Source: a virus (taxonomy: Duplodnaviria; Heunggongvirae; Uroviricota; Caudoviricetes). From it: 47,804 nt of DNA. A model generated the notes under the pieces. That model was given only the letters and a program-made list of their open reading frames with translations. It made no database searches and was not told where the DNA came from. The stretch is from IMG/VR virus record IMGVR_UViG_2541047728_000005. One strand, written 5' to 3'. Of this stretch, positions 24,453 to 47,804 are shown one piece after another (positions within the stretch are counted from its first letter, which is position 1; each line of letters starts with the position of its first letter). The position numbers were made by a program, and so were the translations under genes.

Positions 24453-24528
24453 TGGTGGCCCCTACCGGATTTGAACCGATGACCGTGCGATTATGAGTCG
24501 CCTGCTCTAACCACTGAGCTAAGGGGCC
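24453..24528 (-). tRNA. tRNA with CAT anticodon, tRNA-Ile2 (lysidine)-like; could alternatively be Met
   Basis: Minus-strand GGCCCCTTAGCTCAGTGGTTAGAGCAGGCGACTCATAATCGC...GGTTCAAATCCGGTAGGGGCCACCA; cloverleaf with 7-bp acceptor stem, encoded CCA; 5' 42 nt match my recollection of E. coli ileX. Confidence 0.85.
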
Positions 24529-31916: not shown

Positions 31917-32428
31917 TGATGGCCCCCGTCATTTCTGGTGCTTTTCACCGTGCGGCTTCTTAAAAACCTGCCATCACGAACAACAGACACTTCTCGTTTA
32001 CCCAACCTCATTTCACGGCGGTAACATTCAGAAAATGCCTCGTCCGGCATCATATAAATGCGACGCTTCGCCTCCGTATCCAGAAGGGAACGGCTTGGGG
32101 TTACATATAAGAACGACTCATCAATAGGGACAAAACCACGAGCAAGAATTGCTGGCAGAATACCAGGAAGAACGCAGAAAACAGCTCCACGATGCAGCAA
32201 CATCTGGTACTCCATGACCTCCGTAATCCCCGTAACGACTGTTACGGTGTCACGTCTGTTACGGCTGGCAACCAGTCGCTGCACACCTCCAATTTTCTGC
32301 TCTACAGATAGACGTTTGCTATCGTTATCAATATGATCGATAACAAATCCTTTAATCGTTTGATCAAGGTAGTGCACCACCTGCGATTGAATCTGGTGAT
32401 TATCACCAAAGAAGGCCAGAATCATCAT
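31913..32428 (-). CDS. Hypothetical protein
   Basis: 171-aa ORF translationally coupled to neighbours. Confidence 0.4.
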   Translation of the reverse strand: MMILAFFGDNHQIQSQVVHYLDQTIKGFVIDHIDNDSKRLSVEQKIGGVQRLVASRNRRDTVTVVTGITEVMEYQMLLHRGAVFCVLPGILPAILARGFVPIDESFLYVTPSRSLLDTEAKRRIYMMPDEAFSECYRREMRLGKREVSVVRDGRFLRSRTVKSTRNDGGHQ

Positions 32429-32919
32429 TCCTCAAGCCTCCCAAGTGCTGAACGCCGGGCGTTGCTAATCTCCTTATGAATCAGCTCGATATCGCTGGAA
32501 TCTTTATTCTTAAGCTCCAGCACGGTAATCGCATCACGAACCTCTGAAACGGTTACATGTGAGTGTTTCCAGCGAGCAATGAATCGCGGACCGCGTAGAT
32601 TGCAACGCTCCGCAGGCATCCCCAGCTCAGAGAAAACCGCTTTCAGCCTTGATAAGCAGTTAACAGGGAGATTCCCTTTGATCTTGTTCTGCCGAACCGA
32701 TGTGCCATCGCTACGCTGGCGCTGACGTTCGGCAAAATCTGCCGCCCATTGCTGGACGTTAATCCGGCCTTCCGAATACGCCACCAGCAGCGTCAGGTTA
32801 TCCGCACGAGGGAATCTCTCGAAGCGATACCAGGCACCAATCAGTGATGACGTAAAGCCAAACTTTCTGGCAACACCAATTTGGCCTCCATTTTCGTCAA
32901 CCCACTCCTGAAAGGTCAT
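32425..32919 (-). CDS. Putative Cro/CII-like early regulator (HTH), divergent from repressor gene
   Basis: 164-aa ORF with GGAG RBS; first gene of minus-strand operon leaving the operator region. Confidence 0.4.
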   Translation of the reverse strand: MTFQEWVDENGGQIGVARKFGFTSSLIGAWYRFERFPRADNLTLLVAYSEGRINVQQWAADFAERQRQRSDGTSVRQNKIKGNLPVNCLSRLKAVFSELGMPAERCNLRGPRFIARWKHSHVTVSEVRDAITVLELKNKDSSDIELIHKEISNARRSALGRLEE

Positions 32920-32938: not shown

Positions 32939-33056
32939 ACCACGATATGTGGTATTAAAACCACATATCGTGAGTTTTTCAATGGGCGAAACAAAAAATA
33001 ACCTTCTATTTGTGGTCCACCTCTCGTCTTACCATGTGAAAACCACTAAATGTGGT
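32939..33056. promoter_or_regulatory. Divergent operator/promoter region with three ACCAC-N5-GTGGT operators (32939..32953, 32960..32974, 33042..33056)
   Basis: accacgatatgtggt, accacatatcgtgag, accactaaatgtggt between divergent repressor and cro-like genes; minus-strand TTGAAA-N17-TTTAAT overlaps O2. Confidence 0.65.
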
Positions 33057-33093: not shown

Positions 33094-33750
33094 ATGAAAA
33101 GCAACGACGAGAACATCAAGAAAGAAATAGGTCTGCGCATTCAGACTCTACGGAAACAATCCGGCATGACTGCCGGAGATCTCCAGCAAGTCACTGGAAT
33201 AGGCTTAAGCACCTTGCAGAACTATGAGGCCGGATTAAGACAACCATCTATACCTGCCATCAAGAAAATCGCGCACGCCCTGAAAGCATCAGCGCCTTAT
33301 ATCGCGTGCTTAACAGATAACCCGTTCCCACCCCAGAATACTAACGCTCCTGTTATTCCTGGGCTTGTAGCTATAAAAAATGACATAGCATCGCACGCCG
33401 GAGAAAAGCCAGTGCTGGCGATAGAACAGGAGATTCTACGAAGCAAGAACATCAACCCATCGTCTCTGTCAGTTCTCCAGAGCAACGATGAGTTAATGTC
33501 ACCAACAATATCCCCAGGCTCCCAAGTCCTGATTAATACAGACGATACAGAGATTCATGAGGGGATCTATGCCCTTGAAGACAGAAATGGCCTGGTTGTT
33601 TTGAGGCACTGTAGAGTCATACCGGGTGACAATGCTGTTATGCTGTCAACCGAAAGGGATGCTGAAATGAACACTAAGCATCTGAATAACGAGGAATTTA
33701 AGCGTTATAAAGTTCTTGGCCGCGTAGTTAGTGTTGTCAACTGGTTATGA
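33094..33750 (+). CDS. cI/LexA-like repressor (HTH_XRE plus S24-like C-terminal domain)
   Basis: 218 aa; N-terminal HTH (TAGDLQQVTGIGLSTLQNYEAG); C-terminal MSPTISPGSQVLINTDD...KVLGRVVSVVNWL resembles lambda cI/LexA C-domain. Confidence 0.8.
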   Translation: MKSNDENIKKEIGLRIQTLRKQSGMTAGDLQQVTGIGLSTLQNYEAGLRQPSIPAIKKIAHALKASAPYIACLTDNPFPPQNTNAPVIPGLVAIKNDIASHAGEKPVLAIEQEILRSKNINPSSLSVLQSNDELMSPTISPGSQVLINTDDTEIHEGIYALEDRNGLVVLRHCRVIPGDNAVMLSTERDAEMNTKHLNNEEFKRYKVLGRVVSVVNWL

Positions 33751-33792
33751 TACACAGCACGGCGAAAGCCGTGCATTTCTACGCTCAAAAAA

Positions 33793-33807
33793 ACCACATT
33801 TTGTGGT
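33793..33807. promoter_or_regulatory. Fourth operator ACCAC-ATTTT-GTGGT downstream of repressor gene
   Basis: accacattttgtggt, perfect palindrome adjacent to TTGACA. Confidence 0.55.
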
Positions 33808-33842
33808 TTTGACAACATGTAAAAGTATAAAAGAGGCTACGC

Positions 33843-34217
33843 ATGGAATTACATACAGCCAATAAAAACGAAACTCTGATCACTGCTGGAATCGAAATCC
33901 AAGCGTTGAACATAGCGATTGAGTGTATGTTATGCCAAATCATTGATAATGAGAAAGATATCGACTGGATAGAATCTATCCTTCATCTGGCATCAGAACA
34001 AAAAGTCTGCCTCAAAACGGCCTTACAATACGATGTGCCAGCGATATCGAAGCTGTGCCAGCCATTGATGGCATATAACAGGGCTATTATTTCTGTATGC
34101 CTCATGATTCTTGATGAAAACACCCCTCTTAGCGACCGCTCAGAAGCTGCTCTCACCCTCTCACGTAAACAGCGACAGCTAGCAAATCAACTGATATCAA
34201 CGATAGCTGACCTCTGA
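33843..34217 (+). CDS. Hypothetical protein downstream of repressor
   Basis: 124-aa ORF. Confidence 0.4.
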   Translation: MELHTANKNETLITAGIEIQALNIAIECMLCQIIDNEKDIDWIESILHLASEQKVCLKTALQYDVPAISKLCQPLMAYNRAIISVCLMILDENTPLSDRSEAALTLSRKQRQLANQLISTIADL

Positions 34218-34221
34218 CTGA

Positions 34222-34241
34222 AAGCGGGCTAACGCCCGCTT
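34222..34241 (+). terminator. Hairpin after 33843..34217, possible terminator
   Basis: aagcgggc-taac-gcccgctt. Confidence 0.4.
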
Positions 34242-34245
34242 ACAT

Positions 34246-34346
34246 GATTATAGATTTATATAATTATATAAAACGCTTTTCATCCGCCAAAAAGTTGGTT
34301 ATGCTTACCTCGTTCTATAAATATAGATTTATAGAATTATATAACC
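34246..34346. repeat. Two TATA-rich palindromic repeat arrays upstream of parA (candidate centromere/operator)
   Basis: gattatagatttatataattatataaaacgc and ctataaatatagatttatagaattatataacc; related arrays at seven other loci. Confidence 0.55.
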
Positions 34347-34367
34347 AAACACATGGAGTCTCGACAA

Positions 34368-35021
34368 ATGACTATCTCTGTAGGTATTTTCAACGGAAAA
34401 GGCGGCGTAACCAAATCAACAATTGCCCGTGCTTTAGCAGTTGCTTATGCAAAGGCCGGCTGGAATGTATGCCTGATCGATATGGATGTGCTTAACGGAA
34501 CGGTAACGCGTTGGGTACAACGCAGAATGGCCAACAATATCGAACCTGCAATCGCGGCGCAGCCGTGCGGCACGCCATCACAAGTCCAGAAAATCATCGA
34601 ATCAGAAGTATACGACCTGGTTATCGTCGATGGCGGTGCCTACGCATCTGAATCAGTACCGAAGCTCTCTGAATTTCTGGATATGGTTATTTTGCCAACC
34701 AGATTCTCTACCGATGACCTAGAAACCACCGTTAACACAGCTCACGGCATCGTTAAAAAGGGTGTGCCAATCAAGAAAATTTGCATGGTGTTCTCAGGCG
34801 CGGCTGAAAACGAAGCCGACTACATTGAAGCCCAAGAGTACCTAGCTAATACGCCATACTTTGTTGTCGATAAGTACATTCCCCACAAGCCAGCTCTGAG
34901 CAAAGCTCAGGATAAGGGCTTAAGCCTCATTGAATGCTCATACGTTGCGCCACGCAAAAAGGCAGACGACGTTATTCAGGGGATTATCAACCAGCTTGAG
35001 GCTCTGACTACTGCCGCGTAA
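34368..35021 (+). CDS. parA: ParA-family partition ATPase (small, type Ib-like)
   Basis: Deviant Walker A GKGGVTKST; ~217 aa from GGAG RBS-supported ATG at 34368. Confidence 0.85.
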   Translation: MTISVGIFNGKGGVTKSTIARALAVAYAKAGWNVCLIDMDVLNGTVTRWVQRRMANNIEPAIAAQPCGTPSQVQKIIESEVYDLVIVDGGAYASESVPKLSEFLDMVILPTRFSTDDLETTVNTAHGIVKKGVPIKKICMVFSGAAENEADYIEAQEYLANTPYFVVDKYIPHKPALSKAQDKGLSLIECSYVAPRKKADDVIQGIINQLEALTTAA

Positions 35022-35056
35022 TATATAATTATAGTTTTATAGATTTATATAAGAGG
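35021..35056. promoter_or_regulatory. TATA-rich palindromic repeat array between parA and RHH gene
   Basis: atatataattatagttttatagatttatataagagg. Confidence 0.45.
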
Positions 35057-35064
35057 GGATACAC

Positions 35065-35313
35065 ATGGCCGGACCATCAAAACCACCAAAGAAGAACAGC
35101 AAAGGCGTACCGCCATCGATCGAACAACCGCAGGTTTTCGACCCGACTGAAACGCCAACCAGAACCAAATCAGGTGGGGCACAAATGGCGTTTAACGTCG
35201 ACCCTGAATTTAAACGCGAGTACAAAACGTTCGCCAGCTCAATGGATATGTCATTGAAAGAAGTGCTGACAAAATCTTTTGAGTTACTCAAGGCTCAATA
35301 CAACCAGAAGTAA
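35065..35313 (+). CDS. Ribbon-helix-helix centromere-binding protein (ParG-like)
   Basis: 82 aa; flexible basic N-tail then AFNVDPEFKREYKTFASSMDMSLKEVLTKSFELL RHH-like fold; AGAGGGG RBS. Confidence 0.55.
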   Translation: MAGPSKPPKKNSKGVPPSIEQPQVFDPTETPTRTKSGGAQMAFNVDPEFKREYKTFASSMDMSLKEVLTKSFELLKAQYNQK

Positions 35314-35342
35314 GAGAAGGTGACGGCCTCCAGCGCCAACTG

Positions 35343-35525
35343 TTGGCCGTCGCGACACAACAAGGGGAATTTGTTATGTCCGAGCAACAATATACACGGT
35401 TACTGAAAACTCGTCTAACCGACCTCAAACGGCTGAAAGCTGGTCGCTTATTTGCCCTGCTATCCACCAGGCCAGAATGGGTACGTGAAGCAGTTCTGAA
35501 AGGCTTAATGCGCTCCAGCGTTTAA
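35343..35525 (+). CDS. Small hypothetical protein
   Basis: 60-aa ORF after parG-like gene. Confidence 0.3.
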   Translation: MAVATQQGEFVMSEQQYTRLLKTRLTDLKRLKAGRLFALLSTRPEWVREAVLKGLMRSSV

Positions 35526-35534
35526 ATTCAACCA

Positions 35535-35557
35535 TAAAAAAGGCCCCCGAAGGGGCC
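35535..35557 (-). terminator. Rho-independent terminator oriented for minus-strand transcripts
   Basis: Minus strand GGCCCC-ttc-GGGGGCC followed by TTTTTTT; 7 nt after stop of small ORF 35564..35686. Confidence 0.65.
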
Positions 35558-35563
35558 TAATCG

Positions 35564-35686
35564 CTACTTGCTGCTAATGTTTATCGTCACATTCAGAGCG
35601 TTATCAGTAATCTTCCAACCCTCCCCATGTGGCGTAAACAAAGCCCCAGTAACAACGATAAAAATACACATACAGTATTTTTTCAT
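35564..35686 (-). CDS. Small hydrophobic peptide (40 aa), candidate type I toxin-like or small membrane protein
   Basis: MKKYCMCIFIVVTGALFTPHGEGWKITDNALNVTINISSK; AAGGG RBS 7 nt upstream; strong terminator immediately downstream. Confidence 0.45.
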   Translation of the reverse strand: MKKYCMCIFIVVTGALFTPHGEGWKITDNALNVTINISSK

Positions 35687-35917
35687 TGTATGGCCCTTAC
35701 AGGCCGTTTCACGGCATCCCCACCGACGAAAACAACGCGAGAGCAAGCACGGCTGCTTGTGCTTGCATGTACGGCAACGGAGAATCCTCCCCTAAAGTCG
35801 GTGCCCGGGTGCGAATCGGCGGGAAGGTCCACAGGTATTTTACGATTATTTTAAGATTAGTAATAGGAAAGAAATTAAACGAAAAAACTCGTTTATTTTC
35901 ACAAAATCAGTAACCTA

Positions 35918-35932
35918 CCCACAATCTGTGAG
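35918..35932. promoter_or_regulatory. Operator-like site related to O2
   Basis: cccacaatctgtgag vs O2 accacatatcgtgag. Confidence 0.35.
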
Positions 35933-36004
35933 TTTGCAGGCACAACAAGAACCACAATTTTTTGAAGCATAATAGTGGACTATTATTACCTTTTGGGTAA
36001 AATT

Positions 36005-36111
36005 AACTTGCTGCTTGTGCTTGCGTGGTTGTTTATACAACGACGTTATGCTGAAAGGACCGCGAATCCGATCAGCACGAAAGAACCGTCCTCAATAGGG
36101 CGGTTTTTTTG
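36005..36111 (+). ncRNA. Candidate small RNA ending at intrinsic terminator; carries 15-nt repeat complementary to the opposite-strand transcript region at 35753..35767
   Basis: TAAAAT -10-like at 35998..36003; gctgcttgtgcttgc at 36010..36024 repeated at 35753..35767; hairpin CCGTCC-ucaaua-GGGCGG plus T7 at 36084..36111. Confidence 0.35.
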
Positions 36112-36179
36112 TTTCTGCCTACCAATAAACCCACGCTATGTGGTTGTCTCTGTTAAAATCCCGCCGTATTGACATGAAT

Positions 36180-36279
36180 GCGCCATTGGTGGACACTTTC
36201 CGAGCCGTAGCAAAATCTACGGTCGGGATTGGAACCCCGATAATCATCATGGCGCATACCGCGTTAGCGGTTTTTTTAT
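36180..36279 (+). ncRNA. Structured RNA segment ending at intrinsic terminator in antirepressor operon leader
   Basis: Hairpins CCGTAG-caaaat-CTACGG, CGGG-attggaa-CCCG, terminator ACCGC-gtta-GCGGT plus TTTTTTT at 36259..36279. Confidence 0.35.
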
Positions 36280-36442
36280 GCGTAAAGCACTGCTACACCC
36301 AAATTATGGTGGGGCGTGCGGGGGAGTCGTAAGACTCGCCGGATTCCATGGTGACCGGTAGTTCCAACCCTGTACGTCTCACCACCCAATGATTGGAACC
36401 AGACGGTGGTGAGTATCCTTAACCTTTAAGGGAACTATCACC

Positions 36443-36634
36443 ATGACAAACTTACCCCATGACTATTACGTCAACCTCGTAAAGATCCTTCTCAAGAAAG
36501 CCTCATACGCCGATAAATTCCGCCTAGCTGAAATCATCGAGCGCGAAGCTATGCGCATCGCCAGCAACGATAACGCTGTTTCTGACGCAAAAATCTCCCT
36601 CGTAACCAAAGTAGTTATGGGAGGTGCAAAATGA
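36443..36634 (+). CDS. Small protein preceding antirepressor (icd-like position)
   Basis: 63-aa ORF overlapping start of antirepressor gene (ATGA); AAGGGA RBS. Confidence 0.45.
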   Translation: MTNLPHDYYVNLVKILLKKASYADKFRLAEIIEREAMRIASNDNAVSDAKISLVTKVVMGGAK

Positions 36635-37773
36635 AAACGCTTCCGACCGTTAACACCCTACAGCCTATCTTGCATAACCAGATCCCCGTTATTACAACTG
36701 AACTTCTGGCGCAGTTATACGGAACAAAAATCAAAAACATTTCTGATAACTTTCTGAACAACACGACGCGATTCATAGCCGGAAAGCATTACTTTAAAAT
36801 TGAAAAAAACGAATTACGCGAGTTCAAGAACAGACCTGAAACAATCGGGTTAGTTGGTAAAAATGCCCGCTCCCTCATTCTCTGGACAGAACGCGGGGCT
36901 GCACGTCACGCCAAAATGCTCGAAACCGATCAGGCGTGGGATGTATTCGAACGGCTGGAAGACTGCTATTTCAGCCAGAACGCGCAAACGGCCGCGACCG
37001 TAACCGTCTCGCCAAACAATGCTCGTGAGGTTGTCGATACGCTCAACGCCAAACCGATGTTTTACATTAAAGTGTGCAACAACGAGCCACTCACAACCTC
37101 AGCCGATGTTGCCCAAGCATTCAGCACCACAAACAATTCCATCGTTATGGCCATCGATGCGCTACGCATTCCTCGCACGGCTGCGGCGCGTCACTTCTTT
37201 AAAGAGCAACGACCGCTGGAAGGAAGCGACCGCGAAATAACAATCTATCGCATGACAAAAGACGGATTTACCTTGCTCATGGAGAGCATCGACGGTCCAA
37301 GCGTGAAAGATATCAAGCTGGCCTACATTGAAGCCTTTAACGCTATCAGCAGCGTGTTAAAAACACAGTACGAGCGTGATCTGGCTAAACGACTGTACCA
37401 GGAAAAAACGATTATCCGCGCGGCAACAGAGCATAATCGGCTATTAACGGAACCGAACTACAGGAAGGAACTAATCAAGGCGTTTGACAAGGCAACAGGG
37501 AAAACCAAAGCGGCGCTAAATCTGCCAGCAATGACTCAGGAAAATGTGATATCAGCCTTACTTCTTGATCTGCTCAGAAACGCCAGAGCACTTATCAGCT
37601 TTGACGAAAACCTGAATCCTCAGCTCAAGCTACTACCACCGACAGGCAAAGTAGTCGACCAAGCTGATCACAACAGCATACTCAGCGTACTGGATGCAAA
37701 CCTGCCAGCCAAGACACTACAGGATCTGATAAAAACATGTGCTGATAAGCTGGCACAGAAAAGCAGACCATAA
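36631..37773 (+). CDS. Antirepressor-like protein (ORF6N/KilA-N-type N-terminal domain)
   Basis: 380 aa; N-terminal ITTELLAQLYGTKIKNISDNFLNNTTRFIAGKHYFKIEKNELREFK...LWTERGAARHAKMLETDQAWDVFERLEDCYF matches ORF6N-type antirepressor pattern. Confidence 0.65.
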   Translation: MKTLPTVNTLQPILHNQIPVITTELLAQLYGTKIKNISDNFLNNTTRFIAGKHYFKIEKNELREFKNRPETIGLVGKNARSLILWTERGAARHAKMLETDQAWDVFERLEDCYFSQNAQTAATVTVSPNNAREVVDTLNAKPMFYIKVCNNEPLTTSADVAQAFSTTNNSIVMAIDALRIPRTAAARHFFKEQRPLEGSDREITIYRMTKDGFTLLMESIDGPSVKDIKLAYIEAFNAISSVLKTQYERDLAKRLYQEKTIIRAATEHNRLLTEPNYRKELIKAFDKATGKTKAALNLPAMTQENVISALLLDLLRNARALISFDENLNPQLKLLPPTGKVVDQADHNSILSVLDANLPAKTLQDLIKTCADKLAQKSRP

Positions 37774-37778
37774 CTACA

Positions 37779-37797
37779 AGGGGCTACGGCCCCTTAC
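37779..37797 (+). terminator. Terminator hairpin after antirepressor gene
   Basis: aggggc-tac-ggcccct followed by T-rich tactcttttctctctt. Confidence 0.5.
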
Positions 37798-38594: not shown

Positions 38595-38855
38595 TTATTC
38601 CAATTCTGACGACACTTTAACCTTTTCCCATACAAGGGTTTGCAGCCTTAACAGAATCACATCTTTATCAAGGTGTGAAAGATCCTTAACCATATCGTCA
38701 AACGACAGAACGCGAATGGCCATCTCAATGACCCTCGGCGGCTCACCCTTCTCATATCGCTTATATGTAGCCAACGATATCCCAAACTCTTCGGCGGCTC
38801 GCTCCTGCGTCCAGTTCATCCCACGACGCCATAATTTCAATTCGTAACCCGTCAT
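38595..38855 (-). CDS. XRE-family HTH transcriptional regulator
   Basis: 86 aa; WTQERAAEEFGISLATYKRYEKG HTH motif. Confidence 0.65.
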   Translation of the reverse strand: MTGYELKLWRRGMNWTQERAAEEFGISLATYKRYEKGEPPRVIEMAIRVLSFDDMVKDLSHLDKDVILLRLQTLVWEKVKVSSELE

Positions 38856-38956
38856 TACATCCTCTACCTTTCCCTAGATATTCAATAAATTAGACATAGC
38901 CACTCACGACAAAATAAGATGTATTAACAATCCAATCTTTAGGCTTTAGGTAAAAA

Positions 38957-39382
38957 ATGAGTTCATCTGCTTTTGTCACCGTGGTCACTGGTGTAAGTGT
39001 TTTTGTTCTAGGCCAACTCATCGTCAAAGGAGCTATTGAGCCTTACATTTCATTCAGGGAACAGCTAGGGAAAATATCCAATCTGTTATTGTGTAACCAA
39101 GCAAAAATAGTGAATCCTGGCTCGAACTTAAAGCCAGAAATCATTCATGATCTAAAAGATTCCGCAGCACAGTTAATGGCGAAATATTCCACTTTACCTT
39201 TCTATATCAAAAAGTTACATATCGGCTTTCGTCTTGTTCCATCAGCCACCGAGATTCTTGGGGCAGCTCAAAATTTGAACTATATAGCGTCAATACATGA
39301 AGGTAAGACTGGGGAGAATCCATCTAAGCATCTCGAAGAGATTGGCCATATGCTCAAAATACCAACTACCTATTCAAGCTAA
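38957..39382 (+). CDS. Membrane-anchored hypothetical protein (N-terminal TM helix), divergent from HTH regulator
   Basis: 141-aa AT-rich ORF; N-terminal SAFVTVVTGVSVFVLGQLIV hydrophobic helix. Confidence 0.45.
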   Translation: MSSSAFVTVVTGVSVFVLGQLIVKGAIEPYISFREQLGKISNLLLCNQAKIVNPGSNLKPEIIHDLKDSAAQLMAKYSTLPFYIKKLHIGFRLVPSATEILGAAQNLNYIASIHEGKTGENPSKHLEEIGHMLKIPTTYSS

Positions 39383-43119: not shown

Positions 43120-43585
43120 ATCTGGTCACTTTCCAACCAGACACCCACAATCATAACCACGTTACGTGGTTTTAAGAGAACTCTACCACAACACTTTCGG
43201 TCATGCACGAAGTCTCTCACTGATCGAACGATAATCCACCAGTAAAAGGATCTAAATTGGATCTCGTTTTGCGAGCATCATACTACTGGCCTAACTCCAG
43301 TCAATGATTCCCAGCCAGAAACCTGCGGTAAACTCATCGTTCAGCAATATGCTGTCCGGCTTCAAAGATAAGGTGACATCATCCCTTAACAGCGCGGCCA
43401 GTTCAGTTAAAGGGCTGTTCTGATTTAATGCTGGCCACTCATACCTGGTAATAAGTGGTCAGTCTTAACACTCACTATTTGATTGCACCCGTGTTGACGA
43501 TTTGTTACTGGATATCAGACACGCTGGATAGCCAGTAGAAACATACCATTAAAATTATTACAATAATTGGTCACATGATTATCTT

Positions 43586-47606: not shown

Positions 47607-47804
47607 TTAGCACTCACCAATTAATCGTACATAAGACACAGGCTGGAAAGCACCGACAATACCAACACCACCTGAAACATTGGTTGCTTGCGAAAATGTA
47701 AATAGTGTTCTTGCCGACTTTGCACTCTTGATACTTCTTAACGTATCCTCCAACATCTCTTTCGAAGGAACAGCACCATCAAAAGAGTTAATCGAAGCAA
47801 CAAT
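47607..47804 (-). CDS. Tail protein I (gpI-like), 3' part continuing from 1..479 across the circular junction
   Basis: Reading frame from 479 continues through 47709 to TAA at 47609..47607; 47710..47804 duplicates 1..95. Confidence 0.65.
   Translation of the reverse strand: MVASINSFDGAVPSKEMLEDTLRSIKSAKSARTLFTFSQATNVSGGVGIVGAFQPVSYVRLIGEC

Follow-up and report, generated by a model that had tools for sequence, protein, structure and literature searches.

This study concerns the immunity region (positions 33,094 to 37,773) of a 47,804-nucleotide stretch of viral DNA (Caudoviricetes; IMG/VR record IMGVR_UViG_2541047728_000005), the whole of which is referred to below as the window. The region opens with the gene for a CI-type repressor and closes with an operon in which isrK and c4 RNAs, a short open reading frame (ORF) and the gene for a putative antirepressor, Ant, follow one another; a partition locus and a ryfA RNA cassette lie between the two (Table 1). 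The ends of the window share an identical 95 bp (1-95 and 47710-47804), which we read as the assembly overlap of a circular molecule, and the complete circular element therefore measures 47,709 bp. Since the annotated plasmid gene content combines terminase, portal, contractile-tail and lysis genes with repA, parA and a toxin-antitoxin pair, the element is a phage-plasmid. The Escherichia coli plasmid pMB9698_3 is 100% identical to the window over the region described here, some 60 further non-mobilizable plasmids of 46-52 kb are close relatives, and the Yersinia phages vB_YpM_39, vB_YpM_41 and vB_YpM_44 are related to it at about 96%. The family thus defined is common: complete plasmids of E. 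coli, Salmonella and Klebsiella account for about 60 members, among them the 48.5-kb plasmid of the quality-control strain E. coli ATCC 25922 (NZ_CP009073.1), whose repressor is 99.1% identical, and it produces infectious virions, having been isolated as the three Yersinia phages.

The repressor combines an N-terminal helix-turn-helix (HTH) domain (Pfam HTH_3, E 4.5e-11) with a C-terminal LexA/S24-like domain that Pfam recognizes only below threshold (Peptidase_S24, PF00717, residues 113-212, 18.4 bits against a cut-off of 23.3). Its best PHROG is phrog_4, 'transcriptional repressor', matched over the full length (E 1e-26), and the gene carries the annotation 'repressor protein' in one record. 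An earlier reading of the sequence (the original prediction) had proposed that the catalytic Ser and Lys of the C-terminal domain are replaced by Leu and Arg, and our profile alignment places both substitutions where they were expected. Leu134 occupies the column of the catalytic Ser (LexA S119, lambda cI S149, UmuD S60) and Arg171 that of the catalytic Lys (LexA K156, cI K192, UmuD K97). This alignment set a hidden Markov model (HMM) of 58 relatives, made up of 12 close homologues and 46 distant relatives from a representative search, against E. coli LexA, lambda cI and UmuD; 52 relatives came from running phmmer over the whole library with the last 118 residues of the repressor. An HMM built from the 12 close homologues alone gave no useful alignment to LexA, cI or UmuD.

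Both L134 and R171-H172-C173-R174 are invariant in all 12 close homologues, which are 60-67% identical, derive from Citrobacter, Klebsiella, Salmonella and Yokenella elements, and share the motifs D-x-L-M-(A/S)-P-T-I and (L/I)-R-H-C-R. Across the 58 relatives, the two columns hold Ser and Lys in 33 sequences, neither residue in 24 and Ser with Arg in one. Because Ser and Lys vanish jointly, we take these columns to be the true dyad and the loss to be no artefact of alignment; at the level of sequence, the same distribution shows that dead-dyad repressors arose repeatedly. With both S24 catalytic residues absent family-wide, self-cleavage is very unlikely, and we strongly infer from the sequences that it has been lost.

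Structural modeling is consistent with a conserved fold around the missing dyad. The 58-sequence profile matches UmuD' chains over positions 126-218 (E about 1e-7), and an AlphaFold2 model of the repressor based on the 58-relative alignment reached a predicted local distance difference test score (pLDDT) of 91.3. The best Protein Data Bank matches to this model are 186 CI, then the C-terminal domains of LexA, UmuD' and lambda; 186 CI (7jvt, 2fjr, 2fkd) is the best full-length match (E 2e-8 to 2e-4), and superposition on LexA C-terminal domains gives template modeling scores of 0.70-0.72 with a root-mean-square deviation of 2.5. Adding the 46 distant relatives made this possible; the shallow alignment of 12 homologues left the C-terminal domain unusable (pLDDT 56.6), and a phmmer search of the repressor against PDB sequences returned HTH matches only. 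Many residues of the C-terminal domain are invariant among the 12 close homologues, so the domain has been maintained, presumably for oligomerization, and its LexA/S24-like fold is, to judge from this conservation, under purifying selection. As a separate observation, the invariant R-H-C-R motif (33604-33615) lies on the strand that bears the catalytic Lys in LexA and forms a conserved surface; FRHCR also recurs in a distant relative (P0017).

Sites of the form ACCACn5GTGGT with at most one mismatch occur nine times in the window against 0.73 expected, a count that none of 100 shuffled sequences reached. Five sites of this type, O1 to O5, would be operators bound by the repressor, as their sequence and placement suggest. 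The positions of O1-O4 are conserved in Citrobacter and Klebsiella relatives. O5 is kept in Yersinia phage vB_YpM_39, whose homology to the window begins exactly there, and the related locus L004 has a half-degenerate counterpart at the same 73-bp distance from isrK. The original prediction had placed an operator-like site upstream of the antirepressor operon at 35918-35932. That sequence (CCCACAATCTGTGAG) is indeed present and resembles the weaker operator O2, with three mismatches to ACCACn5GTGGT; it lies within the ryfA cassette, however, between ryfA and the putative antitoxin small RNA, and a terminator and some 250 bp separate it from the ant promoter downstream; the better site is O5. 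On the other side of the divergent region, the 164-amino-acid (164-aa) gene (phrog_7452, E 3e-104; weak N-terminal match to phrog_35, 'transcriptional repressor') holds the same position in L002-L006 and encodes a candidate Cro/CII-like regulator.

The ant operon spans 36130-37795. Its two promoters are candidates that we read from the sequence, as a consensus scan called neither; the TTGACA...GGACACT block is conserved in L002, L004 and L132, and GACACT ends 6 nt before the 5' end of isrK. The c4-a1b1 match that overlaps isrK scores 38.2 bits (E 2.4e-8), under its gathering score. Downstream, the c4 RNA presents two loops that could pair with the messenger. Loop CAUGGUGA complements UCACCAUG, which spans the AUG of the 63-aa ORF (target b2 covers its ATG), and GUUCCAA complements UUGGAAC at two places, 45 nt upstream of this AUG and inside isrK; the exact complements extend over 7 nt (a) and 8 nt (b2).

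Covariation between the loops and their targets supports such a c4 RNA lock at the sequence level. L002 and L004 have different c4 loops with compensatory changes at all target sites, and among 46 distinct c4 variants drawn from 120 viral contigs an exact 7-nt a':a2 match was found in 98%, the figure for non-cognate pairs being 16%. For b':b2, 76% of the variants had a match of 7 nt or more (6% for non-cognate pairs), and the c4-target duplex energy was -31.1 for cognate and -23.0 for non-cognate combinations. The loops are diverse, with at least 10 a' and 38 b' variants. When the c4 RNA of the window was compared with 80 other leaders, none had a b1 complement of at least 7 nt and two shared both a2 and b2, a result that is uninformative on the trigger.

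The original prediction of an ORF6N-type antirepressor operon about 2.7 kb from the repressor is supported by the domain matches of Ant (Table 1), and the distance from the repressor stop codon to the 63-aa ORF is 2.7 kb. The 63-aa ORF had been called icd-like. This holds for its position only: the protein has no BLASTP similarity to P1 Icd. Its stop codon overlaps the ant start (ATGA, 36631-36634) in a manner that indicates translational coupling. Judged by eye, L002 and L004 have versions that are about 90% identical. Ant itself aligns with P1 Ant1 no better than E 5.2. The ORF6N part of ant is 92-93% identical at the DNA level to ant of Shiga toxin (Stx) phages and 89.6% identical to Gifsy-1 STM2616 (307 nt). 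Residues ~245-380 form a family-specific C-terminal region, and L002 and L004 keep this region although their N-terminal modules differ. A word-based search for homologues of the C-terminus found three close proteins only, and tblastn over 72,556 plasmids and 50,697 phage records was used instead. By this search the C-terminal ~130 aa were confined to elements with a repressor of this family, being present in 61 plasmids, compared with 63 that have the repressor, and in the same three Yersinia phages.

Two further features of Ant may be mentioned here. The protein looks like a fusion in which an Stx-like ORF6N module is joined to the family's own Rha and C-terminal protein. In the identical plasmid, the Prokaryotic Genome Annotation Pipeline annotates only a nested 238-aa ORF starting at Met143, which recalls the nested ant1/ant2 of P1.

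The operon had also been likened to those of Gifsy-type prophages, in which the antirepressor is controlled by LexA, and here the sequence points the other way. CTGTn8ACAG with at most one mismatch is absent from 35800-36450, and in the whole 47.7-kb element it occurs 15 times against 14.1 expected. The best LexA-like 20-mers match at 12-13 of 20 positions, all lie in coding sequence, and none in the element is a credible LexA box. There is thus no sequence-level link to the SOS response, and, as no LexA box stands in promoter context, wiring of the kind known for Gifsy GfoA, 186 Tum and N15 AntC was rejected.

Judged from the order and matches of its parts, the ant operon is a module of the P1 immI and Gifsy-1 isrK-anrP type. 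In P1, C1 and C4 jointly keep Ant off (PMC8198154), and immI is annotated in the order Oc4, P2c4/P1c4, a1, b1, c4, a2, b2, icd, ant1/2. The elements of the ant operon, with the operator-like O5 and the candidate promoters in first place, follow the same order, down to a small ORF whose stop overlaps ant, and the c4 RNAs are homologous (Rfam C4, 84.3 bits). Both elements are plasmid prophages that encode a Ref nuclease, and the primary repressor of each is without an S24 catalytic dyad. The proteins differ, however: the repressor of the window has an HTH and a LexA-like fold and is not of C1 type, the 63-aa ORF is unlike Icd, and Ant carries ORF6N and pRha domains in place of the KilAC/ANT domain of P1 Ant1. 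The P1 coi promoter also has a LexA site, whereas no LexA box was found here.

Gifsy-1 shares an isrK RNA followed by an ORF6N antirepressor-like gene, with Rfam isrK, c4-a1b1 and C4 in the same order before anrP. There the b2 target of c4 coincides with the ribosome-binding site of anrP, while here a separate 63-aa ORF follows c4. The Gifsy repressor is likewise non-cleavable (PMC3121763), but Gifsy repressors are ~136 aa long and have no C-terminal domain, whereas the repressor described here keeps a dead one; induction there proceeds via the small antirepressors GfoA and GftA behind a LexA box, of which there is none here. IsrK supplied in trans raises AnrP translation 139-fold (PMC4825925), and this activation may act through the c4 block. 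Some observations on annotation belong beside this comparison. In Gifsy-1 (locus L131, 1206-1459) the published orf45 (+107 to +245 of the isrK transcript, PMC4825925) overlaps a full Rfam C4 match of 69 bits, and isrK overlaps c4-a1b1; in relatives, ORF calls named 'Phage_ASH' or 'ash family protein' overlie c4 (L002 8537-8734).

In phages 186 and N15 the antirepressor genes (Tum and AntC) are under LexA (PMC3121763). The logic proposed here resembles that of 186 CI/Tum and N15 CB/AntC in substituting antirepressor induction for self-cleavage; 186 CI also provides the closest full-length fold, and N15 is a plasmid prophage. The present operon differs in being under c4 RNA, and probably the repressor itself, without a LexA box. 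With lambda cI, LexA and UmuD the repressor shares two domains and a common C-terminal fold, in the register GDSM-EPTI against DELM-SPTI and VKRL against LRHC, and with lambda it shares a divergent cI/cro-like gene arrangement with three operators. It departs from these proteins in that Ser is Leu and Lys is Arg, the Pfam score falls under the cut-off, and the Ala-Gly pair is not conserved in the family. Overall, the system combines known parts in a new way; none of them is new in kind, and the switch is not of a new type. Its closest counterparts are P1 immunity and Gifsy-1 isrK-anrP.

The explanation of the whole that we favor, with slightly better than even confidence, is that a non-cleavable CI repressor is combined with a c4-locked ant operon of the P1 immI type whose product, Ant, inactivates that repressor. 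The HTH domain would bind ACCAC-N5-GTGGT at three sites in the divergent region, at one site 3' of the repressor gene, at one site at the ant operon and possibly at one at repA. The dead-dyad C-terminal domain would now serve dimerization or cooperativity, and the protein would probably not cleave itself on activated RecA. Transcription of the ant operon would start next to O5 and run through the leader with a1 and b1 and then through c4, whose loops are predicted to pair with a2 and b2 and to block the start codon of the 63-aa ORF. As ant appears to be translationally coupled to this ORF, Ant would not be made while c4, and probably also the repressor, is present. Once made, it would probably bind the repressor and inactivate it through the family-specific C-terminal region. 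As in P1, the module would most likely help decide between lysis and lysogeny, take part in heteroimmunity and contribute to induction once the c4 lock is lost or titrated away.

Several findings weigh against this explanation. Stx phages and other lambdoid phages commonly carry the same RNA-ant cassette, and carrying it does not by itself mean that an element depends on Ant. In 56 plasmids the repressor shows at least 99% identity; the Ant C-terminus varies more widely, from 83 to 100%, which is not a pattern of tight co-evolution. Among relatives with a dead-dyad repressor, the Rha protein of L003 is truncated and lacks the C-terminal region, and in L006 (Klebsiella aerogenes) neither ant, c4 nor isrK was found in the 4.3 kb downstream of the repressor gene, to the contig end. 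Given such relatives and the wide spread of the cassette, Ant is not demonstrably an obligatory route of induction. O5 is missing from L002, and in the window it lies upstream of the -35 element of the conserved promoter and does not overlap it. Ala102-Gly103 is kept, in the modeled window protein, in a predicted loop matching the LexA cleavage loop. Finally, the c4 lock has no known release signal, and nothing in the sequence indicates what releases the operon. The original prediction that induction runs through an antirepressor and not through RecA-mediated cleavage therefore stands in part: the loss of the dyad, the antirepressor-type protein and the family-confined C-terminus of Ant speak for it, while the lack of a LexA box and the relatives without an intact ant do not.

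Alternatively, Ant might be a mobile accessory regulator of the repressors or promoters of other prophages (compare Fels-1 FsoA acting on the Gifsy-2 repressor, and Gifsy-1 AnrP on antQ) and not the cognate inducer, the element's own repressor being inactivated by the 124-aa product in the manner of P1 Coi, by host proteolysis, by dilution or copy number, or by LexA-controlled antirepressors of co-resident prophages. Such a role would fit the loss or truncation of ant in relatives that retain the repressor, the occurrence of the cassette in unrelated phages, the 92-93% identity of its ORF6N part to Stx-phage ant, which points to recent exchange, and the conservation of the 124-aa ORF and O4 in every relative examined. 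It sits poorly with an Ant C-terminal region that is confined to the family across all the plasmids and phage records searched and is kept while the N-terminal modules swap, and with a family-type operator at the edge of the ant module; we regard it as rather unlikely. The idea that 33094-33750 codes for a regulator with accessory or plasmid-maintenance duties (at par or repA, for example) and that another HTH protein such as the 86-aa ORF product (38595-38855) silences the lytic genes, draws on the location of the repressor gene directly upstream of the par genes, on the operator-type site upstream of repA and on the second small HTH gene with its divergent partner (38595-39382). Three predicted operators in a classical divergent layout face the long leftward operon, which contains Ref, DUF1064 and DUF3560 and then the lysis and structural genes; with the full-length phrog_4 match and the 'repressor protein' annotation, this makes the idea very unlikely.

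RecA-dependent inactivation might also persist despite the lost dyad, either by cleavage at Ala102-Gly103 through other residues or an active S24 partner in trans, or by binding of activated RecA without cleavage. The Ala-Gly pair falls in the predicted loop that joins strands 91-96 and 107-111, a placement like that in the LexA cleavage loop, AGEKPVLAIEQ resembles LexA AGEPLLAQQ by eye, and the fold is intact and conserved. Against this, both dyad residues are replaced in every close homologue, the Ala-Gly position is variable (SG, a single G, GS or D), the fact that 24 of the 58 relatives have lost Ser and Lys together indicates relaxed selection on catalysis, and the C-terminal domain shows no other evident conserved Ser/Lys pair; of the readings considered here, we give this one the least credence. 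A bolder version of the favored explanation is that the family is SOS-blind, with a pseudo-protease repressor, no LexA box and lysis gated only by the variable c4 RNA as a 'combination lock', so that the matching a1/b1 (IsrK-like) decoy of a co-resident or superinfecting phage would titrate c4 and free Ant. We consider this quite unlikely as it stands. Were it true, induction would be triggered by other phages and not by DNA damage, and the published IsrK activation of Gifsy-1 AnrP would amount to relief of the c4 block.

If there is neither self-cleavage nor a LexA-controlled inducer, these phage-plasmids would break the usual rule that prophages are induced by DNA-damaging antibiotics, and such an exemption, if true, matters for predicting their spread. 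The repressor is a clear-cut natural case of a LexA-like domain being preserved as a non-catalytic module, and the Rfam annotations isrK, c4-a1b1 and C4 are united in a single P1-type regulatory unit.

Table 1. Features of the immunity region and associated sites (window coordinates).
Feature	Position	Strand	Evidence and remarks
164-aa first gene of leftward early operon, divergent from repressor	32425..32919	-	Candidate Cro/CII-like regulator
Predicted operator O1, ACCACGATATGTGGT	32939..32953		Same-position site in L002-L006
Predicted operator O2, ACCACATATCGTGAG, one half-site degenerate	32960..32974		Position kept in relatives, where it is a full palindrome
Predicted operator O3, ACCACTAAATGTGGT, 38 bp 5' of repressor start codon	33042..33056		Position kept in L002-L006
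CI-type immunity repressor, 218 aa	33094..33750	+	N-terminal HTH_3 and C-terminal LexA/S24-like domain
Predicted operator O4, ACCACATTTTGTGGT, best palindrome, between repressor gene and 124-aa ORF	33793..33807		Position kept in L002-L006
124-aa ORF downstream of O4	33843..34217	+	phrog_7632, E 8e-84
Partition locus	34241-35313		parA 34353-35021; 82-aa ORF 35065-35313
Type I toxin-antitoxin-like cassette	35536-36112		Between par and ant modules
ryfA RNA	35832-35536	-	Rfam, 141.8 bits; holds 40-aa TimP-like ORF 35686-35564
Degenerate operator copy, CCACAATCTGTGA	35919..35931		Inside ryfA/antitoxin small RNA cassette, not at ant promoter
Putative divergent antitoxin small RNA		+	Promoter-like 35976-36003; terminator ~36085-36111
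Operator-like site O5, CCCACGCTATGTGGT, left edge of conserved ant module	36130..36144		Motif match
Candidate tandem promoters of ant operon	36151..36197	+	Extended -10 TGtTAAAAT 36151-36159; TTGACA 36169-36174, 17-bp spacer, GACACT 36192-36197
Leader RNA with own terminator	36204..36277	+	Rfam isrK, 70.2 bits; overlapping c4-a1b1 match
a1 TTGGAAC and b1 TCATCATGG, within isrK leader	36229-36235; 36244-36252	+	Co-vary with c4 loops
c4 antisense RNA	36302..36389	+	Rfam RF01695, 84.3 bits, E 3e-15, full length 1-87
c4 loops b' CATGGTGA and a' GTTCCAA	36347-36354; 36361-36367	+	Sequence
c4 mRNA targets	36393..36445	+	a2 TTGGAAC 36393-36399; b2 TCACCATG 36438-36445
63-aa leader ORF in position of P1 icd	36443..36634	+	phrog_7886; ATGA overlap with ant
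Putative antirepressor Ant, 380 aa	36631..37773	+	ORF6N 12-96 (E 4.5e-21); Phage_pRha 155-239 (E 1.5e-12)
Terminator-like hairpin ending ant operon	37778..37795	+	Sequence
Perfect operator-type palindrome, ACCACGTTACGTGGT	43156..43170		38-50 bp upstream of repA start (- strand, ~43119)

Other features of the element lie around this core. The 124-aa ORF, which matches nothing in Pfam or NCBIfam and was found in all relatives examined, encodes a putative protein that, from its position, is a possible modulator of the switch. Because the palindrome ACCACGTTACGTGGT adjoins the start of repA, the repressor may also control this plasmid replication initiator, by analogy with the control of kilA-repL by C1 in P1. 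The ryfA cassette is lacking in L002 and vB_YpM_39, both of which have the ant module; a segment of the putative antitoxin small RNA, GCUGCUUGUGCUUGCGUG, is complementary to the 5' part of ryfA.

In placing the element, the pSLy3 phage-plasmid group was considered as its home and rejected, as pSLy3 sits in the SSU5 supercommunity, and no study of this phage-plasmid family was found in the literature on Yersinia phages, the ATCC 25922 phage-plasmid or dead-dyad repressors. Repeats of the type TATAGATTTATATAA flank the par genes (34241-34352 and 35022-35052) and are likely centromere or autoregulation sites. A tRNA gene lies at 24456-24528 on the minus strand (Rfam tRNA, 67 bits). The 86-aa HTH gene, on the minus strand, is divergent from a 141-aa ORF, and the two, kept together in relatives, may form a further regulatory pair.

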